Source: a virus. From it: a DNA stretch of 64,000 bases. The translations under genes and the position numbers were made by a program. Location: the UHGV virus genome UHGV-0076294; one strand, given 5' to 3'. The notes below the pieces were generated by a model. It was not told the DNA's origin, searched no databases, and saw only the letters and a program-made list of their open reading frames with translations. This document shows, piece by piece, positions 4,617-44,700 of this stretch; the first letter of the stretch is position 1; each line of letters opens with the position of its first letter.

Positions 4617-5164
4617 TCATCATCTCCTTTAACTAAACCCAGTTCAATTAACAATTCAAAATCGATTTGGCGAAATTTGTTATCAAAACCAGAATCCCAA
4701 TCGATATGTAACCCTTGTCGTTCTTCATCGGTAAGTTCAGGATAAATTAAACCAAGGAACGCTTCACGTTCTTCGTAAAATCCATCGATAGTAGAATCTG
4801 GATTTCGTGTTGCATAGATCGTAATGCCCGGAAAGGATAATCCTAATGCTGTTATAGATTCGACGCTCGGTTCTTGCAAGGCCCTGCGTAAAAGCACGAT
4901 TTTATGTCGTGGAAATTCTAGTACACGTTGTTCAAATCCAGGATTCCGTTTCTCAATTTCTGTAACTGAAAGATCGGTGAGTTCTGTGCAATACATTGGG
5001 ATAACTACGGTTACTCCGTGACGAATTAATAGTCGTTTAACATCGTCAGTGAAGTCTTCACCGTTAATTTGCACATAACAACCAAACAGTTTTGTGCTCT
5101 CTAAAAACTTTTCCAAAAAACGGAATTTACGCTTCGTAATATTGTGGATCAGAATTGGTTTCAT
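4592..5164 (-). CDS. Hypothetical protein (radical SAM cluster)
   Basis: ORF overlapping both neighbours (coupled translation); no recognisable motif. Confidence 0.5.
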   Translation of the reverse strand: MKPILIHNITKRKFRFLEKFLESTKLFGCYVQINGEDFTDDVKRLLIRHGVTVVIPMYCTELTDLSVTEIEKRNPGFEQRVLEFPRHKIVLLRRALQEPSVESITALGLSFPGITIYATRNPDSTIDGFYEEREAFLGLIYPELTDEERQGLHIDWDSGFDNKFRQIDFELLIELGLVKGDDECLLLTKA

Positions 5165-6449
5165 CTTTGGCTTCTCTCAATTGTTTTTCTTTCTGGGCAC
5201 GTTCACGTACGCAACGAGGGCAATAACACATGCTATTATCGTGAAAATCTTTCACTGACGTCGTGCCCATTTTCTGTTTCCAATATTCCGCAACCATCAA
5301 TTTTGCAGTTGTCCAGCCGCATTGACGGCGTTCGGCGTGATAAGCTTTGCGATCTTCTAGCGTCCCTTCTCCATTCTCGTAAGATGCAGCCGCACAACTA
5401 CCACAAGCGTGCTTCATTGGACAACCTAAACAGGTTTCAGGATAGTTGGTATATTGCGTCTGAATCTCTTCCAGCAATTTCCCGTCATCTAAGCTAACGA
5501 ATTCCCGGCCAACTAATTCAAATACGGCAGAACGTGATGTTACGGTTGACATGAAACGGTTACAACCGAAGATCTTACGATCGAATCCTAAGCAGGTCAT
5601 GTGTGTTAACGTACCGCAGAACGGACGTAAACGTTCTGGATTCAAACGTACAGTATCGTTATACAATAATTGGTCGCGCCAGTTTGGTTCCCAGATAGTA
5701 TCAAAATCTAACCCGTCTGGAATGATGTGCGACAAGGTGTTACGTGGGTTGGTGTGTAAGCCCTTCTCAACCCAATAATCAACCACATCCATCATCTGCA
5801 ATGCGATTGAAGTAGCCATGCTCCGTGGCATAATGTCTTCGAAGGTTACGTTGCCGGAAATAGTTCCACCGCCAGTAATATCAATTAATGATTTCATTCC
5901 AGCAGCATAGAACGGTAACGTTTCCAACGTAAAGGTCGCTTTTACACCAAGTTCTGCAATACCGACTTCTTTTAAGTAATTATAGCCCCGCACAGCGGCC
6001 TCGTAAGATCCTTCACGAGTTGTTGTAAAAATCCGGTACTTATCGTGCGATTCGGGCAATCCATCAATAGACACCCCAATAGAAAGCCTGTCTTTCCAAC
6101 GTTCAATAATTTCTCTATTCAAAGGTCTATCTAACAATGTTCCGTTAGTAGAAATGCTAAACATAAACGGCCGATTATGTTTTTCGCATAACTCTTCTGC
6201 GGTTTCAAATGCCGCCATTAATAACTTAGGCTGCATAAACGGCTCGCCGCCGATAATGTCGATAACGACCTCGATGTTTGTCAGGTCTTTATCCCTTTCG
6301 AAACAGGCATGTAAAAAATCAACGATATCTGCCGCTTTGTTATTCCGAGGATACTTACGTTCGTAACAATACTCACAGTCTAGGTTACACGATAAATTTG
6401 TAACGATCTGATAAGTCAGTTGTTTAGGATAACTATTTTCTTGACTCAT
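5127..6449 (-). CDS. Radical SAM enzyme with C-terminal SPASM/twitch-like Cys-rich domain
   Basis: CNLDCEYC (CxxxCxxC) near N-terminus, GGEP motif; C-terminal CGTLTHMTC...GC and CLGCPMKHACGSC cysteine clusters typical of SPASM auxiliary Fe-S domains. Confidence 0.8.
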   Translation of the reverse strand: MSQENSYPKQLTYQIVTNLSCNLDCEYCYERKYPRNNKAADIVDFLHACFERDKDLTNIEVVIDIIGGEPFMQPKLLMAAFETAEELCEKHNRPFMFSISTNGTLLDRPLNREIIERWKDRLSIGVSIDGLPESHDKYRIFTTTREGSYEAAVRGYNYLKEVGIAELGVKATFTLETLPFYAAGMKSLIDITGGGTISGNVTFEDIMPRSMATSIALQMMDVVDYWVEKGLHTNPRNTLSHIIPDGLDFDTIWEPNWRDQLLYNDTVRLNPERLRPFCGTLTHMTCLGFDRKIFGCNRFMSTVTSRSAVFELVGREFVSLDDGKLLEEIQTQYTNYPETCLGCPMKHACGSCAAASYENGEGTLEDRKAYHAERRQCGWTTAKLMVAEYWKQKMGTTSVKDFHDNSMCYCPRCVRERAQKEKQLREAKDETNSDPQYYEA

Positions 6450-36528: not shown

Positions 36529-39033
36529 ATGTTAAAAGTTGAACGTATTGTACTTAAAGGGTTTACCGGAATGGGATTACACGAAATCGAAACCTTCGAT
36601 TTTACTATCCATTCCCCAACCACCATTATCCTCGGTGGTAACGGCTGCGGTAAGACCAGCTTACTGTCCGTGTTTCTACCTATCGCACCTTCGAAATCCG
36701 AATTCCGTGACGGGGGTTCTTACACCAACATCTGTTTGGTTAACGACCATCGTTACAAATTTAAGGTTGCACGTAAAGGCAACTCACTGGTTTGCGATAT
36801 CGAGAACCTGACGACGGGCACCAAAATCGTCGAACAAGGTAATGCGAAAGTGTATAACTCTCGTGTAGAAGAAATCACGGGCATTACAAAAGAGATTAAA
36901 GAGTTACTGAACGGAGAAGTGCTTTTAACGGATGCAGGAACGGAACTGCGTCGTAAGTGGTTCTACCGTTTAAGTACGTCAGACTTAACTTACGCGTTAG
37001 GTTTTTATCAACGTTTACGAAAAAACCTGACGATGTTAAACGGCGGTATTGAAATCACCAGCCGCAAGATTGCAGAGTTGCGTACCCGCGTGATTGATAA
37101 CGAGGAAGAACGTCAGCAGTTAGCAACACGGTTAAAAGCATTAGAAGTGGATTTACGTGAAGTCAACAAACAGATTGAACAACTGCCTGGTCTGAATCGC
37201 GACGTTACGGTGGCAACGATTCAATCGCTATTGCTTAAAATCGAAGCACCGATTAATGCTATCTTGGAACACCGTGGCGGATTACCTACGGAAGAACGGG
37301 TAGAGGAAGCACGACGCGTTGAAGCCACTGCCCGTGAAGCGGTGGTCTCTGCTGAAACAGAACTGTCCATGCTAAACAAAGATTTGTCTTTGTTGATGGA
37401 CGAGTCTACCCGCCAAGATTACCTGATGCGGAATCACGAAGGGTTAAAGAACACGGTTGCAAAACTGCGTGAGTTATTAAAGCAGTGGGACACCGAACAT
37501 CTTTTCCCTGAACTGTTTGCGGAGACCGTTAACATCGACCAGCTTAAAGCAGCGACGGATGCGCGTGTCTGGGGACAACGTTTAGGAACAACGCTGGACG
37601 CCATTAAATCGACAGAACGGTTGAACGTACTGGAAGAGAAACTGTTGACCTTAGACCAAAACTCATCTGGGTTGCGTGACCGACTACAACGCGTTGAAAA
37701 CGTATTGCAGAACCTCAACCACGAACGGAATCACTATTTGGAAACCGCCGAGGTTGATTGTCCGCAGTGTCAATTTAAATTCCGTCCGGGCGTGCGTCGT
37801 TCTTTGCCTGAATTGGAAGAAGCCATTCGTGGACAAATGGAGCAACGTAATACGTTACAGACTCAGCTTGATTCCGTATTGCGAGACCGTACGGAATTAG
37901 AGTCGGACGTTAATTACATGCGTCAAGTACGAGAAATCGTTTTAACATACTCGAAAGACCCGGTATTGAGTTTGTTCTTTAAACGTCTCCAGGAGCGGAA
38001 TGTCTTTACGGATAACCGCAGTCAATTCGGCAGTTTGTGTGCAGAGTTCGATCGTGAACTTTATTCCGCAATTGAATACCACGAAACGAAACACCGTTTT
38101 GCTAAAGCGGAAAAAGAGTGGGCAAACGCAGTTGCAGCGGTAGGTAACGTTGACGGTGCACTACAGCAGAAAATTGCCTTCCAGCAGGAGCGTTTGGGTA
38201 AGGCGACAGAAACGCTCTCAGAGCGCCGTAGAGAGCACGCAGTTGCTAATGATACCTTTTGTTATCTAAACGAACTTAAAGCCACTGTAGACAATTTTAA
38301 TGCGGTTTTTGAGCGTTTAGAGAACGATGTTAAGGTAACATTAACCAATACGGTGGTCGAAACGTTATTAAACGCCCGAGAAAACAAGTTGGATGCGTTC
38401 ACCACAGCACGGGAACGGTACCGTCAGATGGAAAACGAGCTCAACCAACTTACTGCGTTAGAAAAGGAGTTATCGGATTTACAGGCACAGCAATTCAATA
38501 ACAAACTGATGATTCAAGCGTTCTCGCCCGAGAAAGGGGTATTACGCAAATACTTCTACAACGCTATCGTGAGAATCACAGAATTAATGACGCGCTATAT
38601 CGAACAAGTCTGGACCTACCCTATGCGGGTCATGCCGTGTGACTTAACCGATGGTGACTTAGACTACACGTTCCCAGTGCAGTTAAAAACCCATCCTGAA
38701 CCGGTACCTGACGTGCGGAAAGGGTCGAAAGCACAGCGAGCCATCTTTAATTTGATGTTTCGTTTAACCGCTTACAAAGCCCTGAAACTTCATCAGTATC
38801 CGCTACTGTTGGATGAACCGTCAGAAGGGATGGATGAGGAACACCGAAATAACCTCGTCGGGTTTATTAAAACCCTGGCGAATTCCGGTGAGTTCTCTCA
38901 GTTACTGGTGGTATCTCACGAAGCAGAAATTCATTCAAAACTTAACGAAGCCGCATACTGTGTTATTGAACCTGAAGGCGTAACACTGCCTGCGGTATAC
39001 AACGAGGGAGTAAAAATTGTCTACGCAAACTGA
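36529..39033 (+). CDS. Rad50/SbcC-like recombination ATPase (T4 gp46-like)
   Basis: Walker A GGNGCGKTS near N-terminus, long coiled-coil middle with CPQC zinc-hook-like motif, C-terminal Walker B LLLDEPSEGMD and following SHE; SD ggaggtgg before ATG 36529. Confidence 0.75.
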   Translation: MLKVERIVLKGFTGMGLHEIETFDFTIHSPTTIILGGNGCGKTSLLSVFLPIAPSKSEFRDGGSYTNICLVNDHRYKFKVARKGNSLVCDIENLTTGTKIVEQGNAKVYNSRVEEITGITKEIKELLNGEVLLTDAGTELRRKWFYRLSTSDLTYALGFYQRLRKNLTMLNGGIEITSRKIAELRTRVIDNEEERQQLATRLKALEVDLREVNKQIEQLPGLNRDVTVATIQSLLLKIEAPINAILEHRGGLPTEERVEEARRVEATAREAVVSAETELSMLNKDLSLLMDESTRQDYLMRNHEGLKNTVAKLRELLKQWDTEHLFPELFAETVNIDQLKAATDARVWGQRLGTTLDAIKSTERLNVLEEKLLTLDQNSSGLRDRLQRVENVLQNLNHERNHYLETAEVDCPQCQFKFRPGVRRSLPELEEAIRGQMEQRNTLQTQLDSVLRDRTELESDVNYMRQVREIVLTYSKDPVLSLFFKRLQERNVFTDNRSQFGSLCAEFDRELYSAIEYHETKHRFAKAEKEWANAVAAVGNVDGALQQKIAFQQERLGKATETLSERRREHAVANDTFCYLNELKATVDNFNAVFERLENDVKVTLTNTVVETLLNARENKLDAFTTARERYRQMENELNQLTALEKELSDLQAQQFNNKLMIQAFSPEKGVLRKYFYNAIVRITELMTRYIEQVWTYPMRVMPCDLTDGDLDYTFPVQLKTHPEPVPDVRKGSKAQRAIFNLMFRLTAYKALKLHQYPLLLDEPSEGMDEEHRNNLVGFIKTLANSGEFSQLLVVSHEAEIHSKLNEAAYCVIEPEGVTLPAVYNEGVKIVYAN

Positions 39034-39217
39034 TTGGTGGCGTCAGTTACTAAGCGTTTTAGGGTTTAGCGTCATGGTGCTGGTTGCCATTCTGTACGTG
39101 CTATTTTGTATAACGGCGATTTTATGGGTGGTCTTAGCGTACGCGATTAGGCTCACCTGGGGTTCAATTTGGCACCAACGCGAATGTGAGTGGCGGTGTG
39201 TTGGAGGGAAGTCATGA
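39017..39217 (+). CDS. Small membrane protein candidate
   Basis: TTG start with SD gagggag; hydrophobic stretch VLGFSVMVLVAILYVLFCITAILWVVLAYAI. Confidence 0.3.
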   Translation: MSTQTDWWRQLLSVLGFSVMVLVAILYVLFCITAILWVVLAYAIRLTWGSIWHQRECEWRCVGGKS

Positions 39218-39324
39218 TTGAGGGTATTCTGTTAACACTTGGGTCGTTGTGGATTATTGGGAAATCCCTCAACTGGCTGATTAATAAGTACGGATGGGCT
39301 TTCAAAGGCTCTACGCACAGTTAA
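39214..39324 (+). CDS. Small hydrophobic peptide candidate (36 aa; not in ORF track)
   Basis: SD ggaggg 5 nt before ATG; ATGA overlap with previous ORF; MIEGILLTLGSLWIIGKSLNWL...; followed by hairpin. Confidence 0.35.
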   Translation: MIEGILLTLGSLWIIGKSLNWLINKYGWAFKGSTHS

Positions 39325-39331
39325 GTTAGGA

Positions 39332-39360
39332 CCCCCTCCTGGGTAACTGGGAGGGTGTTT
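39332..39360 (+). terminator. Hairpin terminator
   Basis: ccctcc...ggaggg followed by tgtttt. Confidence 0.45.
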
Positions 39361-39374
39361 TACGAGGGAAAACC

Positions 39375-39503
39375 ATGACTGTTGTCAATACTACCAATGC
39401 TGCAATTGGCGCTTTATACAACGCGGAACTAACATGGGGTGCGGGTTTTATTACCGTACTACTTCTTGCCGCAGCCGCTTTTATCATTGGACGTTGGTTT
39501 TAA
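39375..39503 (+). CDS. Small membrane peptide candidate (42 aa; not in ORF track)
   Basis: SD gaggga; MTVVNTTNAAIGALYNAELTWGAGFITVLLLAAAAFIIGRWF has a clear TM segment. Confidence 0.35.
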   Translation: MTVVNTTNAAIGALYNAELTWGAGFITVLLLAAAAFIIGRWF

Positions 39504-39535
39504 TTTCATCTTTTTGCGTCTGTAAGGTCTGATAA

Positions 39536-39979
39536 ATGGAAATTTATTTGTTGAACGCACTTTCTAAAATCGGTGAAGAACAAGCGAAAGATTTACTCGC
39601 ACTTCATTACCGTTACTTAGATCATCAAGCAACGATGCTGAAAATCAAAACCGCTGTACCGAAATTAAACGTGCGTCAACTGATCGAAGGCAACTGTGTT
39701 GTTCTGATTTATATCGACGATGTTGCGGCGGGTTATTGCAGTTACCGTAATCGCAACGGGGTACTCAAAATTCGTTCGCTATACGTGCTGCCCGATTACC
39801 GTCAGCGTGGGGTAATGAAAGAAATCTTCAAAGCGATAGCCGCTGATGAAGCATTCGGTGAAATTGCAATTGGGATGTACACGAAGTGCAAAGAAGCGAA
39901 AGAGTATTTCATTCGTCGTGGCTACAAAGCAACCTATTCTCACGATAAAGAATGGGTGGATTTCAGTAAAACTTTCTAA
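39536..39979 (+). CDS. GNAT-family N-acetyltransferase
   Basis: Motif VLPDYRQRGVMKEIF matches the GNAT acetyl-CoA binding region (R/Q-x-x-G-x-G/A). Confidence 0.6.
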   Translation: MEIYLLNALSKIGEEQAKDLLALHYRYLDHQATMLKIKTAVPKLNVRQLIEGNCVVLIYIDDVAAGYCSYRNRNGVLKIRSLYVLPDYRQRGVMKEIFKAIAADEAFGEIAIGMYTKCKEAKEYFIRRGYKATYSHDKEWVDFSKTF

Positions 39980-40045
39980 AACAATAAAGGCTCTCTTGAC
40001 GTTCCTCACTATGAGTGTGAGAATTTTACGTCGGGAGAGCTACTT

Positions 40046-40282
40046 ATGTTAAACAGTTTCGGTGTAGGTGGAATGGATACAAGCATTTGCTGGAAAGAAT
40101 ACGAACGCGCAAAGGCATTTCTCCAGCATCCCAACGTGGGTAAGATCGGTCAGGTGTGCTTTGGTAAACCTGCACTGACAGCCTGTATTCAAGGTGCGTT
40201 AGGGACGCTGCCACCTGAATCACCTTTCGAGCCTAAGGAGAATCCAGATGTTACCAGGAACCCAAACCCCGTATCTATTTAG
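40046..40282 (+). CDS. Hypothetical protein
   Basis: SD gggagag; short ORF. Confidence 0.45.
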   Translation: MLNSFGVGGMDTSICWKEYERAKAFLQHPNVGKIGQVCFGKPALTACIQGALGTLPPESPFEPKENPDVTRNPNPVSI

Positions 40283-40622
40283 TGAACCACTGGATAACAG
40301 CGACATCTTACAAATCTGCTATCAGTGTCACGAAATCGGTGGTAGTGAACTTACGCGGGTTAATAAACTGCTGTGGCTGATTCCAGAAATCGAATTACCG
40401 TTTGTTAAGCCTAGCTTGTGGCGTCGTGGTGCGTGTCGCGAAGCGTATATGCTGTCAAAATTTAACATTAATCTGGAGAAGGTCTGGGAGAAGATGAACG
40501 ACACCCAAACCCGAGAACAGATTACTCACACGCTGGAATTGCACCTTGCCATGAAACGCCTCGGTCTCGAACACGAAGGACTGGAGTCCGTTATCAGTCA
40601 ATGGGTGAAAAGGAATCGTTAA
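40248..40622 (+). CDS. Hypothetical protein
   Basis: SD aaggagaa; overlaps previous gene. Confidence 0.5.
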   Translation: MLPGTQTPYLFSEPLDNSDILQICYQCHEIGGSELTRVNKLLWLIPEIELPFVKPSLWRRGACREAYMLSKFNINLEKVWEKMNDTQTREQITHTLELHLAMKRLGLEHEGLESVISQWVKRNR

Positions 40623-40695
40623 TGTCTAAAACGTATATAGCGATTTTGGTTGAGTTGGCGATTGGTGGTACGCGGTTTATCCCTGTGCATCAATT

Positions 40696-41220
40696 ATGCT
40701 TACCTCACTCGGTAAGACCGTTATGCTAACGATACTTCCAGAATCGGATATTGACAACGACCTGTTTAACGCCCCTGAGCGCTTCAAGGTCGTTACGATA
40801 AATTGTGTAGGGGCAATGGGTCGGGGTATCGCTTTAGCGTGCAGAGAACGCTATCCTGGTCTTTATCAGGACTACCGAGAACGTTGCTTCGCTAACGAGA
40901 TACGAATAGGGAATGTGTACGTTTATCCCGAGGAAAACTGCATTCTCTTACCAACTAAAACACATTGGAAACTGAAATCCCAGGTTTCTTATGTTATCGC
41001 GGGTATCACCGCGTTGGCAGATGCCGCAGAAAACTTAGAGGGTGGGGTGGCTTTACCGCCGTTAGGGATGGCCACCGGTTGGTTGACAAAAGCTGAACGT
41101 CAACAAATCTTTTTGTTTATCGAAAAGAAACTCGTACCAAGGAGACAACATTACCGTTTCTATTTACCCGAACCGCTTTACCAAGAAGCAAAACCTTTAA
41201 TTCCAAACCTTTTTAAATAG
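40696..41220 (+). CDS. Macro-domain-like protein (ADP-ribose binding/processing candidate)
   Basis: VVTINCVGAMGRGIALA resembles macro-domain VNAAN..GGGV motif and GGVALPPLGMATG resembles the IAFPAIStGiyG motif; start uncertain (40696 or 40723). Confidence 0.45.
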   Translation: MLTSLGKTVMLTILPESDIDNDLFNAPERFKVVTINCVGAMGRGIALACRERYPGLYQDYRERCFANEIRIGNVYVYPEENCILLPTKTHWKLKSQVSYVIAGITALADAAENLEGGVALPPLGMATGWLTKAERQQIFLFIEKKLVPRRQHYRFYLPEPLYQEAKPLIPNLFK

Positions 41221-41235
41221 ATATTATCATTAGGG
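41218..41235 (+). promoter_or_regulatory. AGATATTAT-type motif (candidate promoter) upstream of lytic transglycosylase gene
   Basis: tAGATATTATCATTAGGG; variant of the motif at 28648 and 32954. Confidence 0.3.
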
Positions 41236-41320
41236 CACACAACAAAGGAGTACCAGCTGTCCGCGCCGTGATTTCGTTCTACGGAATACGGAAATGTATA
41301 AATCCAACTGGAGAACTAGT

Positions 41321-42007
41321 ATGTTTCGTATCTTCTTTCTTTTACTGGTAACACTTTTCGCGTTTAACGCATACGCATCCAAATCCGCACCCAGTGCCAA
41401 ACACCATCGTGAATTCGAAATGATTCAAGACCGTTTCGAACGGGTAAAACCGTTGATTGTGGAAATCTCTCGAAAGCAGGGTGTTGATCCTAATTTAATG
41501 ACCACGCTAATCTATCGAGAGTCACGGTTTAATCCGAAGGCGTATAATCGAACGTCTAAAGCGCACAGTCTGGTTCAGATGCTACCGAGCACAAAGCGCA
41601 ATTTGCTAAAACTCTACGGTGCCGAAATCGGACTTAGTCGCAATGCGGATTTGTACAATCCTCGTAATGCGGTGCTATTGGCTTCCGTCTACGTTAAACA
41701 TTTAGAAAAGGGGTTAACTAAACGACTCAAACGCAAGCCCACTATTGCAGAAATAGCATTGGCTTATCACTGGGGTGAAAGCGGTGCACACGCCAGGATT
41801 AAAAGCAAGTCTCGGGCAGCACAACGAGAAATGGCGAGCTTTATGAAAGATGCAACGTTCTACAGTGCGAAAATCAACAAGCCTGTAGCATCTCGTCAGC
41901 TTGCGTTTGCGAAGAAACCAGAACGCCAGATTCAGTTAGCAGAAGTTAACCGAATTTGGGATACGATAAACACCAGTTTTCCATTTAAACAAGGAGTCAC
42001 CCTTTGA
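41321..42007 (+). CDS. Lytic transglycosylase (SLT domain) with signal peptide
   Basis: SD tggagaa before ATG 41321; signal peptide MFRIFFLLLVTLFAFNAYA; catalytic-region motif YRESRFNPKAYN...AHSLVQMLPST. Confidence 0.7.
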   Translation: MFRIFFLLLVTLFAFNAYASKSAPSAKHHREFEMIQDRFERVKPLIVEISRKQGVDPNLMTTLIYRESRFNPKAYNRTSKAHSLVQMLPSTKRNLLKLYGAEIGLSRNADLYNPRNAVLLASVYVKHLEKGLTKRLKRKPTIAEIALAYHWGESGAHARIKSKSRAAQREMASFMKDATFYSAKINKPVASRQLAFAKKPERQIQLAEVNRIWDTINTSFPFKQGVTL

Positions 42008-42513
42008 GCATCGTTGTAACCGATTGGTATAAAGGTATCACTAAGGCTACCCAAATTACTGCCCAGGACGTGTACAGTATCGTTCGTAGCAGTAACGAAG
42101 ACCAGATAAAGTCCGACGAAGACTTTGCAACGCGTCATGAGTTTTACGATGCCCTTAAAACGGCTTTCGGTGACGACGAAGAAGAAGGTTTAGAGTTTGA
42201 CTGGAACGTCAACCTTGCCTTATTGTGGATTTGCGGATTGCGTCCGAGTGTGAGAGACACGGAGCAAGGAAAAGTTCTGTTGTGGCATCACACCGGTAAA
42301 TACAATCCGAACCAGGTCTTTAAAGAAGCGTATATGGAAGCCACTGTAGAGTTACAGAATCTGCTGTTGGGTGAGAACACCTACTGTCAACGCAGCTTCC
42401 TGACGATTCTGGAGAAACTGGCGTCTACACACAAAATCTGGCGTCAGGCAGATGCCCCTGAGCACATCTTCGTTCTGGAATTTGCTGTGATTCCAAACCA
42501 GCCGTTCTTTTAA
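42004..42513 (+). CDS. Hypothetical protein
   Basis: TTG start with SD aaggag, overlapping previous stop; followed by terminator. Confidence 0.45.
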   Translation: MSIVVTDWYKGITKATQITAQDVYSIVRSSNEDQIKSDEDFATRHEFYDALKTAFGDDEEEGLEFDWNVNLALLWICGLRPSVRDTEQGKVLLWHHTGKYNPNQVFKEAYMEATVELQNLLLGENTYCQRSFLTILEKLASTHKIWRQADAPEHIFVLEFAVIPNQPFF

Positions 42514-42519
42514 TACTTG

Positions 42520-42554
42520 CCCCTAATCCAATCGGATTAGGGGTACTTTTATTT
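42520..42554 (+). terminator. Rho-independent terminator
   Basis: cccctaatcc-aatc-ggattagggg followed by tacttttattt. Confidence 0.7.
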
Positions 42555-43109: not shown

Positions 43110-44045
43110 ATGACTTTTCCATCTGAAGTAATTTACGAACTGGCTAACACACTACGTCGTCACTATAGCGCCAAGATGATGCAAACCCATGTGGGTGCGA
43201 CCGCTGACTTTTTGCGCGGCCATTTCCTGGGCAATAACCCGCCATCTATTACACAGGAAACGGTTTTCTCTATCGATCGTGCCTCCTTAATTCTTCCAAT
43301 CGACCACGCCATTGCGGTTCAAGAAGGGAATACGTTCAACTTCTCTATGGGAATGCGACGTTCGTCTATCGCCGTTAACTCAAACATGGGAAATAACCCG
43401 TCTTTCGTACAGAACACGCACTCTGCAGAACACGGTAACTGGTTCGTTGTTGTAGAACAAGGCGTGAATCAGTATGACGTTGTTGCAGCTCGCGATGAAT
43501 CTTTCTTTGAGCTGGGACAGATTTCTCGCCGTCGTGAAATTGCGCTTGACCTACGTCAAGGTAATATCGGATTAAGTGGGACCAGTGTCTATTTCATCCT
43601 GAGCAGTTGGGCACATGTAAGTTATGTGCTGAAAAATGCCAGTCCGACGTTCCACGCAACGACGGTAGAATTTCGTGGCCTTGAGATAGAATATCGTGAC
43701 GAAGAAGAAACGGTACCTGGCACAGAGGTCGCCATTTGTGAAAACTACGATGATCTGAAATCTGTGCTTGTTAAGCGTGATGTTTTCGAATCGTTAAACT
43801 TGGATTTCCCCGGCGATGAAAATGAAATATCCGTAGCTGACCTGGTAGAAACATTGTGTCAGAAAGACCAAGCTAACGAAATTAGCGACGAAGAAGCAGA
43901 ACTCTTCCAAGTTCAACAACTCATCAGCAAGGTTATCGGCGGTCAGGAAATTGTTGACACCCTTATGGCTTTACCACCGAAGAAACGTACTCAAAAGTAC
44001 ATTCGTGAACTGGTTCTTGAAAACCTGGGTCAAGCCAAAAAGTAA
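43110..44045 (+). CDS. Hypothetical protein, paralog of 44107-44655
   Basis: SD aagagga; N-terminal similarity to next gene; followed by terminator. Confidence 0.55.
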   Translation: MTFPSEVIYELANTLRRHYSAKMMQTHVGATADFLRGHFLGNNPPSITQETVFSIDRASLILPIDHAIAVQEGNTFNFSMGMRRSSIAVNSNMGNNPSFVQNTHSAEHGNWFVVVEQGVNQYDVVAARDESFFELGQISRRREIALDLRQGNIGLSGTSVYFILSSWAHVSYVLKNASPTFHATTVEFRGLEIEYRDEEETVPGTEVAICENYDDLKSVLVKRDVFESLNLDFPGDENEISVADLVETLCQKDQANEISDEEAELFQVQQLISKVIGGQEIVDTLMALPPKKRTQKYIRELVLENLGQAKK

Positions 44046-44052
44046 TTTAAAT

Positions 44053-44087
44053 CCCCTACTCCCGGAGGAGTAGGGTTAATTCTTTTT
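44053..44087 (+). terminator. Rho-independent terminator
   Basis: cccctactcc-cgga-ggagtaggg followed by ttaattcttttt. Confidence 0.65.
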
Positions 44088-44106: not shown

Positions 44107-44655
44107 ATGTTTCCATCATCTGAATATTTAACCCACCTGGCTTACGGTATTCGTCGAGGTTCTGTTTTCCGTACACGTTTAAAGGACGTAAATTTCCTGG
44201 CTAATTTCTTATTTAACCATTTGGGAGATGGAACTAACGTTTACAAAAAGATCACCACAACACAACTTTATTCCCTTATAGCGGCGTCTGAAATTGTACC
44301 TACAGATATTTGGCGATTCAAGCGTTATAACGGAGATATTACGATCAGTTTTCTTGATCATTCTCCTATTACCGTTGAAATCGTCGAACGCGTTGATATT
44401 AATAGTGAAGTGTCTGGTTGGAAGATTCTGTTTGATTGTGGCAATCGTTATGCGGTACTTGGCTCCTCTGATGAACGTGACTTCCCATTCGACAAACCCT
44501 ACTACTACCTCAGCGAAGATGATTTCCCGGATAAAGAATCCAATATCTTTTTAAACGGGGATACCGTTTACTTCATTTTTCGTACTTGGAACGATGTTGC
44601 TGCTATGATTGCTCAAGGTGTCATCGATTACCGTAAACTAGAAGTCGACATTTAA
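44107..44655 (+). CDS. Hypothetical protein, paralog of 43110-44045
   Basis: SD aggag; followed by bidirectional terminator. Confidence 0.55.
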   Translation: MFPSSEYLTHLAYGIRRGSVFRTRLKDVNFLANFLFNHLGDGTNVYKKITTTQLYSLIAASEIVPTDIWRFKRYNGDITISFLDHSPITVEIVERVDINSEVSGWKILFDCGNRYAVLGSSDERDFPFDKPYYYLSEDDFPDKESNIFLNGDTVYFIFRTWNDVAAMIAQGVIDYRKLEVDI

Positions 44656-44661
44656 AATAAA

Positions 44662-44700
44662 AGCTACCCTACTCCTTTTCGGGAGTAGGGTAATTTCTTT
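44662..44700. terminator. Bidirectional terminator between convergent genes
   Basis: ccctactcc-ttttcg-ggagtaggg followed by taatttctttt. Confidence 0.65.

Follow-up and report, generated by a model that had tools for sequence, protein, structure and literature searches.

AdfM (anti-DarT factor macro) is a DarG2-like macrodomain of chimalliviruses, and the name has been given to PhiKZ gp104, PhiPA3 gp108, Goslar gp83 and Asesino gp217 (Morgan et al., Cell Rep 2026, April; PMC13309987). PhiKZ gp104 strips DarT2-installed ADP-ribose from a DNA oligonucleotide, a removal that is weakened by the exchange N23A; it also relieves the toxicity of DarT2 in E. coli, and the phage cannot do without it when growing on hosts with DarTG2 (PMC13309987). 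In Asesino, PhiKZ and PhiPA3 the AdfM protein is found in the phage nucleus, and the AdfM work indicates that this compartment alone does not shield the DNA of jumbo phages from DarT2 (PMC13309987). Here we report on a block of genes at positions 39536-41220 (+ strand) of the UHGV virus genome UHGV-0076294, of which a stretch of 64,000 nt (the window) was analysed. The block contains a macro gene, which we assign to AdfM on the grounds given below, and a gene for an acetyltransferase of the GNAT type.

Other phages are known to reverse the modification of DNA by DarT as well. T-even phages use a NADAR-type orphan protein for counter-defence against DarTG1 which is reported to be a free copy of an antitoxin's enzymatic activity and to undo ADP-ribosylation of DNA by DarT (PMC11825919). 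A Vibrio phage antitoxin mimic is reported to act against DarTG by the same strategy (PMC11481870). The window protein resembles both in this respect. On the other hand, they differ from it in fold (NADAR) or mechanism, and they are directed against DarT1, which modifies guanine, and not against DarT2, which modifies thymine.

Identification of the macro gene

The original prediction, made from the sequence alone, had named two open reading frames (ORFs) of the block, one for a GNAT and one for a macro-domain-like protein; both ORFs and the motifs quoted from them are present where it had placed them. The ORF 40696-41220 (+, 174 aa) carries VVTINCVGAMGRGIALA and GGVALPPLGMATG, glycine-rich stretches which form the two loops by which the macro fold binds ADP-ribose. 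Because the homologues, which are 161-166 aa long, begin at query residue 10, the true start is probably ATG 40723. This start is supported by a 35-aa ORF upstream (o35), the stop of which overlaps that ATG. Residues are numbered below according to the 174-aa ORF.

The match to Pfam Macro remained just under the cut-off (19.3 vs 22 bits, E 1.2e-3), a score that by itself is ambiguous and would under-call the domain. The resemblance to macro domains was settled by DarG-specific profiles and by the fold. Profile searches yielded DarG profiles at E ~1e-30, i.e. NCBIfam antitoxin_DarG (NF048014) with E 7e-30 and PADLOC DarG with E 3.3e-30; the match to phrog_335 had an E-value of 1.7e-28. A search of the PDB led to the DarG macrodomains 5m3i and 5m31 (M. 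tuberculosis and Thermus aquaticus) with E-values of 1.8e-19 and 4.3e-17. The AlphaFold model of the macro protein (31 homologues) had a predicted local distance difference test score (pLDDT) of 92.9 and a predicted template modelling score (pTM) of 0.89. When it was compared with the PDB by Foldseek, the first four matches were DarG or DarTG structures (TaqDarG with ADP-ribose, TaqDarG, MtbDarG and DarTG), followed by human TARG1. The best match was 5m3e, the Thermus DarG with ADP-ribose, with E 1.3e-13, a template modelling (TM) score of 0.84 and a root mean square deviation of 2.1 Å.

The active site was examined in an alignment with PhiKZ gp104, Asesino gp217, SPN3US gp070 and both DarG macrodomains. 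Asn36 (codon 40801-40803) and Lys88 (codon 40957-40959), which become N27 and K79 when counted from Met10, align with N22/K80 of TaqDarG and with N23/K78 of PhiKZ and are invariant across 31 homologues.

The DarG profiles were matched at positions 7-154 of 338 (NF048014) and 7-146 of 329 (PADLOC) only, and with 104.4 bits against an equivalog cut-off of 250 the NF048014 score did not reach that of a full-length DarG. No darT gene was found near the macro gene by Pfam and PADLOC searches of the flanking genes; the flanks are o124/o35 on one side and an SLT transglycosylase gene on the other. With neither a C-terminal DarT-binding half nor an adjacent darT, a DarG antitoxin of the type II toxin-antitoxin (TA) system DarTG was ruled out. 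Because only the macro half of DarG is present and darT is absent from the neighbourhood, the protein is the orphan form carried by a phage, the defining trait of AdfM. Compared with DarG of DarTG2 from Thermus aquaticus and M. tuberculosis (5m31, 5m3e, 5m3i) it has the same fold, 31-39% identity and the equivalents of N22/K80, and the chemistry is presumably shared, too, namely removal of ADP-ribose from thymidine in single-stranded DNA. In contrast to DarG it has no C-terminal half and comes without darT, and it is encoded by a phage and directed against a host system rather than being the antidote of that system.

A search with the macro protein returned 212 phage records with a best identity of 63%. 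The protein is 62.2% identical over 164 aa to Asesino gp217 (YP_009290835.1), where the gene likewise has SMC upstream and SLT downstream, and 30% identical to PhiKZ gp104. It has the attributes of the AdfM proteins, i.e. a standalone macrodomain of ~160 aa, a DarG2-like fold and the catalytic Asn and Lys, and its gene lies upstream of the SLT transglycosylase gene as in Asesino and SPN3US. It differs from them by its origin in an undeposited lineage (best deposited match 63%) and by Thr127 in place of Asn or His, and it is known here from sequence and model. Judged from these comparisons the macro gene is an AdfM orthologue, one more divergent member of a known family.

At the DNA level the locus had zero megablast matches among 50,697 deposited phages. 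At the protein level it is clearly related to the ~240-kb jumbo phages SPN3US (Seoulvirus), Asesino and phiEaH2 (Erskinevirus) and to those of the genus Machinavirus. Synteny of the window with Asesino and SPN3US goes along with aa identities of 40-86%. Closest to it are Logan/metagenome contigs that carry no annotation, with 95-99% aa identity over a 16-kb contig. The common gene order is SMC/SbcC-like gene, small ORFs, GNAT, small genes, macro gene and SLT transglycosylase gene. The remaining genes of the window (giant paralogous virion proteins, radical-SAM, UvsX-like and RNase-H-like proteins) match this type of phage. The source phage thus is an undeposited jumbo phage of the Enterobacteriaceae type, which is chimallivirus-like and related to SPN3US and Asesino. 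The features of the window that are discussed here are compiled in Table 1.

Table 1. Positions of the genes and sequence elements discussed in the text
Feature	Position	Strand	Remarks
Predicted AdfM orthologue, standalone DarG2-type macrodomain, 165 aa from ATG 40723	40723-41220	+	longer ORF from ATG 40696, 174 aa
GNAT family A, 147 aa	39536-39979	+	Pfam, phrog_3810, model; SPN3US/Erwinia-type jumbo phages only
Structured spacer GNAT-o78	39989-40041	+	minimum free energy (MFE), alignments, covariation
o78, conserved 78-aa gene	40046-40282	+	tblastn 38-49% identity; phrog_28329 E 1.5e-14
o124, 124 aa	40248-40622	+	phrog_11720; overlaps o78 end by 35 nt
o35, putative 35-aa ORF, MSKTYIAILVELAIGG...	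40622-40729	+	conserved 100% in closest relative L008 only
Terminator-like hairpin, 12-bp stem and T-run	42518-42545	+	first strong one downstream of block
Three giant genes in a row for paralogous virion structural proteins, 1727/1402/1441 aa	12040-25863	-	phrog_7449, 8078, 7557, cross-matching one another
Radical-SAM protein gene	5127-6449	-	

Proposed function of the macro protein

Based on the fold, the active-site Asn and Lys, the orthology and synteny with a validated AdfM and the lack of both a DarG C-terminal domain and a darT gene nearby, we favor the view that the macro protein is an AdfM orthologue which hydrolyses thymidine-linked ADP-ribose installed by DarT2 on single-stranded phage DNA, probably in the phage nucleus, and that the GNAT gene is accessory and separate, with a coupling to the next gene, o78. 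We put the probability of this reading at roughly 0.78. DarT2 of the host would attach ADP-ribose to thymidines in single-stranded phage DNA and the window AdfM would remove it, so that the genome could still be replicated and packaged in a DarTG2-carrying host. Like the proteins of Asesino, PhiKZ and PhiPA3, the window AdfM would probably be imported into the phage nucleus. The activity on DNA, the nuclear localisation and the protection phenotype are thereby carried over from the literature to the window protein and are to be taken as presumptive.

A number of points weigh against this reading. Among the AdfM proteins only that of PhiKZ was assayed enzymatically, and that of Asesino was localised only (PMC13309987). 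Position 127 is Asn in at least 90% of the homologues, as it is in PhiKZ AdfM and the two DarG structures, and the Thr found here could reduce the activity of the window protein. Chimallin or PicA genes were not identified inside the 64-kb window, and the ability of the window phage to form a nucleus is surmised from its relatedness to phages like Asesino, for which a phage nucleus was shown (PMC11724907). Two further points concern the GNAT, which belongs to a family designated A. The canonical acetyl-CoA motif A is Q/R-x-x-G-x-G/A, while that of the window GNAT reads R89-Q-R-G92-V-M94; Arg89 and Met94 are invariant in the family, position 92 is G, K, Y or H (K in SPN3US) and the last position is Met, not Gly or Ala. 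Because motif A is non-canonical, with its central Gly exchanged in many members of the family, even the use of acetyl-CoA by the GNAT is presumptive. Finally, 23 records from three genera (Moabite-, FBKp24- and KpLz-type) contain a GNAT of an unrelated family B at a distance of 0-1.3 kb upstream of the AdfM-like gene, and the window GNAT therefore is perhaps not functionally independent.

Thr127 (ACC, 41074-41076) is situated in loop 2, PPLGMATGW. It is unique to the window sequence among the 31 aligned homologues; a 97%-identical relative has Asn like the DarG structures and PhiKZ AdfM, and the codon ACC is one base from the Asn codon AAC. This pattern would fit an allele which is catalytically weakened or dead through Asn127Thr, i.e. 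a decaying or neofunctionalised copy. Yet, Asesino AdfM, Psa21, Moabite and one database homologue have His at this position, which thus tolerates change, and the rest of the macro protein is intact with a pLDDT of 92.9 and every invariant residue kept. A defective allele is highly improbable in our opinion. As a natural Asn-to-Thr variant in an ADP-ribose loop, Thr127 could inform structure-function work on AdfM and DarG.

Alternatively, the macrodomain may not act on DNA at all and may be a housekeeping enzyme or an eraser of another kind: an ADP-ribose-1''-phosphate (Appr-1''-p) phosphatase, an O-acetyl-ADP-ribose deacetylase or a remover of ADP-ribose from protein or RNA, either TARG1-like or directed against RNA-targeting ADP-ribosyltransferases. 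Database names of the homologues such as 'Appr-1-p processing protein', 'phosphatase' and 'protein-ADP-ribosylation protein' point in this direction; these legacy names, however, are automatic annotations and not tests. TARG1 and Poa1p do appear lower down in the lists of fold and sequence matches, but the DarG macrodomains are ahead of Poa1p by ~18 orders in E-value (1.8e-19 vs 0.05) and stand at the top of the fold ranking. Related macro genes also exist in phages without a nucleus, the phiEco32-like podophages. Against this, the catalytic Lys of DarG is conserved in the macro protein, and PhiKZ gp104, a family member with 30% identity to the window protein, clears DarT2-derived ADP-ribose from DNA and is needed against DarTG2 (PMC13309987). 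A target other than DNA is therefore very unlikely. The macro protein of the podophages mentioned (among them phiEco32 and SU10; ~77 kb, no nucleus) is ~44% identical to that of Moabite, and because these phages carry such close relatives the DarG-like orphan macrodomain is not restricted to chimalliviruses.

The anti-defence role that the original prediction had offered for the macro gene is well supported for the assignment to AdfM, with DNA ADP-ribosylation by DarT2 as the target and not the NAD-depleting systems. There was no sign that the macro protein serves an ADP-ribosylation programme of the phage. The main story of the macro gene is already in the literature and is more specific than what had been proposed.

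The GNAT gene

The ORF 39536-39979 carries SLYVLPDYRQRGVMKEIF. The GNAT call was confirmed by three Pfam GNAT models above their cut-offs, Acetyltransf_1 (33.3 vs 20.7 bits), Acetyltransf_7 (31.0 vs 27) and Acetyltransf_10 (28.2 vs 23.6), and by a model of the protein with a pLDDT of 90.8 and the beta-alpha topology of GNATs. In addition, the ORF matched phrog_3810 'acetyltransferase' with E 2.4e-25. A fold search retrieved more than 500 GNAT structures at E<=1e-3, but the neighbours were generic with TM scores of 0.55-0.73 and identities of 10-20%, and therefore gave no clue to the substrate. Family A comprises 53 phage records from one clade (best identity 40%) and 32 proteins in a database of 5.8 billion proteins, all of which are on contigs of the jumbo-phage type; the members with a named source are from jumbo phages. 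In tblastn searches with the window GNAT (E<=0.01) one place per genome was hit. Thus the gene at 39536-39979 codes for a genuine GNAT of a clade-restricted family.

Spermidine N-acetyltransferases (SATs) have been assayed from two related phages, phiEaH2 (YP_007237670) and Caitlin (YP_009292176), while the one of SPN3US was inactive (PNAS 2023, PMC9992855). These are GNAT-fold enzymes of the same Erwinia jumbo phages that possess homologues of the window GNAT. The identity of the window GNAT with the published SpeG-like SATs was ruled out, as the GNATs of the corresponding locus are YP_007237764 and YP_009292274, ~95 genes away. Furthermore, the SATs have bacterial relatives of 73% identity, whereas the searches run with the window GNAT gave no cellular homologues. 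A TA toxin of the TacT/AtaT type was discarded, since no TacT or AtaT model of NCBIfam matched, and so were AAC(6') and RimI, for which the NCBIfam scores were 13-15 vs 225-320 bits and 13.7 vs 86 bits, respectively. None of the curated NCBIfam subfamilies was close; ArsN2, for example, scored 24 vs 125 bits. No publication on the family-A GNAT was found in the literature. Most plausibly, the GNAT uses acetyl-CoA to acetylate a small molecule or a protein, either of the host or of the phage, and serves takeover of the host or counter-defence.

In phages of the Wellington type the GNATs are arranged in tandem. A second acetyltransferase of 124-151 aa, ~26% identical to family A, is encoded directly upstream of the family-A GNAT in four loci: L022 40-974 (Wellington), L021 34-977, L025 4614-5483 and L028 1970-2889. 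In the SPFM series of Salmonella phages both the GNAT and the macro ORF are fragmentary in several genomes (11-18% coverage, 50-95% identity), which suggests frameshift errors of assembly and not biology.

Relation of the GNAT to AdfM

The GNAT and the macro protein had been proposed to act as a pair. In every member of the clade 2-5 small variable genes separate the GNAT from AdfM, and the two are adjacent in none. In the window at least two genes (40046-40282 and 40248-40622) and possibly the 35-aa ORF (40622-40729), too, are located between them. Phobos (Derbicusvirus) has kept the order SMC-AdfM-lysin, with GNAT, o78 and o124 absent. No GNAT was detectable beside the AdfM-like genes of a PhiKZ-like phage, 201phi2-1, Psa21, Eowyn, PhiEaH1, RTH11, RAY-like phages and SA002. 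Hidden GNATs among the 'hypothetical' genes upstream were considered for PhiEaH1, Eowyn, PhiKZ-like, Psa21, 201phi2-1, RTH11 and RAY-like phages and dismissed, because Pfam and profile searches gave no evidence of them. The AdfM of PhiKZ, whose type of locus has no neighbouring GNAT, is active and protective alone (PMC13309987). With no adjacency within the clade and with AdfM standing without a GNAT in PhiKZ and Phobos, the proposed pairing finds no support in this form: the GNAT is not an obligate partner of AdfM.

In SA002 (L013 1378-3680) and in phages of the Bosolaphorus/RAY type (L014 1314-3104) the AdfM-like gene is flanked by genes for weakly SLOG/YAcAr-like proteins (PF10686) with no GNAT. 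The macro protein of SA002 is a fusion protein of 290 aa.

A looser association would be a two-enzyme counter-defence module of GNAT and AdfM, possibly with o78 and o124, in which the GNAT, for example, would inactivate DarT2 or another defence protein while AdfM repairs the modified DNA. There is a precedent for such an acetylation in the anti-CRISPR AcrVA5, a GNAT which acetylates and inactivates Cas12a. In all 53 cross-checked family-A records AdfM is found 1-2.3 kb downstream on the same strand, divergent metagenomic members keep the GNAT...AdfM arrangement, and in the window no strong terminator intervenes between the two genes. A further argument is the unrelated family B upstream of AdfM-like genes mentioned above. 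The block there is RNA polymerase beta (RNAP-beta) - helicase - GNAT - macro, with loci at L003 2529-3438 (Moabite), L015 808-2196 (FBKp24) and L017/L018 2941-5105 (KpLz-2_45, MJ359). Families A and B are not divergent orthologues: BLAST detected no similarity, and hhalign aligned the motif-A region only, with a probability of 3.8%.

Each of these associations, however, represents one ancestral syntenic block (SMC...SLT and RNAP-beta-helicase..., respectively), which leaves two independent events in ~11 lineages. Moreover, jumbo phages have several GNATs per genome (the SpeG-like SAT, tandem GNATs in the Wellington type), so that proximity by chance is plausible, with a probability of roughly a few per cent for each lineage. 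Because of the small number of events and the several GNATs per genome the recurrence of GNATs near AdfM is suggestive, but falls short of significance. No second protein is needed for AdfM to relieve DarT2 toxicity and to protect PhiKZ, and the AdfM paper mentions no acetyltransferase (PMC13309987). Phobos and many other lineages have AdfM without the GNAT. We consider a two-enzyme module unlikely. An elaborate version is similarly doubtful: GNATs of two unrelated families would have been recruited or retained directly upstream of AdfM in separate branches of the nucleus-forming jumbo phages, and GNAT-o78-(variable genes)-AdfM would constitute a regulated multi-enzyme counter-defence cassette, with o78 wired in by an RNA switch that occludes its ribosome-binding site (RBS) and contains a terminator, and acetylation would neutralise a defence protein or metabolite while AdfM repairs the DNA. 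The GNATs of two unrelated families upstream of AdfM nevertheless are a lead for a second counter-defence activity.

o78 and the structured RNA spacer

In every clade member checked o78 directly follows the GNAT (SPN3US gp074, Asesino gp213, Caitlin gp202, phiEaH2 gp115). It starts 66-70 nt past the GNAT stop, up to ~80 nt in the Wellington group. Neither Pfam nor PADLOC gave a match for o78.

The spacer between the two genes stands out in alignments by its strong conservation. It is predicted to fold with an MFE of -28.9 kcal/mol (z -5.45) in the window. An outer helix of 13-14 bp is formed by 39989-40001 with 40029-40041, and its 3' strand is the Shine-Dalgarno (SD) sequence of o78, GGGAGAGCU (GGGAGAG, 40033-40039). 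It encloses a variable inner hairpin at ~40004-40021, which is followed by an invariant UUUU(U)ACG (40024-40030). In 12 sequences from five genera 94.4% of the outer helix was paired, compared with 40-53% in slid controls. There are three compensatory pairs, U-A to A-U in SPN3US and C-G to U-A and U-A to C-G in the Wellington group, with the SD-like purine run kept. The overall covariation score was 0.237 vs 0.155 in shuffles, and none of 500 shuffles reached 0.237. The spacer had no match in Rfam, and no such cis-regulatory RNA was found described for nucleus-forming phages in the literature consulted. The possibility that TTTTTACG is a general promoter or terminator motif of the phage was rejected, as it is not enriched in the window and is unique to the spacer in this context.

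The constant adjacency and the covarying spacer led us to conclude that the GNAT is coupled to o78; by these sequence criteria it is o78, rather than AdfM, that is its tight and conserved partner. Most likely, the helix governs translation of o78 or read-through, and the simplest reading of the spacer would be an attenuator. A terminator-like hairpin together with an RBS-occluding helix would limit expression of o78 and of the genes downstream. The helix would be opened by ribosomes finishing the GNAT, whose stop is 10 nt upstream of it, or by another factor. A covarying RNA element outside Rfam that hides the RBS of the gene after the GNAT is worth a follow-up.

Downstream genes and transcription of the block

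SPN3US, Asesino and phiEaH2 possess o124, and Caitlin and Phobos lack it. The ORF o35 begins with an ATG that overlaps the stop of o124 (TAATG) and ends with a stop that overlaps the start of AdfM (ATGCTAA); Pfam gave no match for this ORF, which may be a real micro-gene or a mere coupling spacer. From these overlaps o78, o124, o35 and AdfM probably are translated as a chain.

On the + strand from 39355 to 42518 the sole terminator-like site is the weak hairpin in the spacer (40005-40021). The hairpin at 42518-42545 probably ends a transcription unit GNAT ... AdfM - SLT - o169, and the GNAT probably shares a transcript with AdfM. Host sigma-70 promoters were discounted for the block because it contained 10 sites against 15.2 in shuffled sequence, a scarcity to be expected as such a phage uses its own RNA polymerases.

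Further observations in the window

Between the SMC-like gene and the GNAT three hydrophobic ORFs of 66, 44 and 42 aa are located at 39017-39503 (+). Their conservation in SPN3US, Asesino and phiEaH2 is partial, and a terminator-like hairpin is situated among them (39334-39355). Downstream of the block the strong terminator-like hairpins at 42518-42545, 44054-44075 and 44665-44692 have closely related stems, CCCCTAATCC.../CCCTACTCC...GGAGTAGGG. Of these, 44054-44075 and 44665-44692 are palindromes that were scored on both strands; 44665-44692 is the site where genes of the + and - strands converge. The genes at 43110-44045 (+) and 44107-44655 (+) are paralogues, both of which match phrog_11818. 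The former is just 65.6% identical to its counterpart in the closest relative L008, while all neighbouring genes show 94-99% identity, and by this comparison 43110-44045 appears as a local hot spot of diversification.

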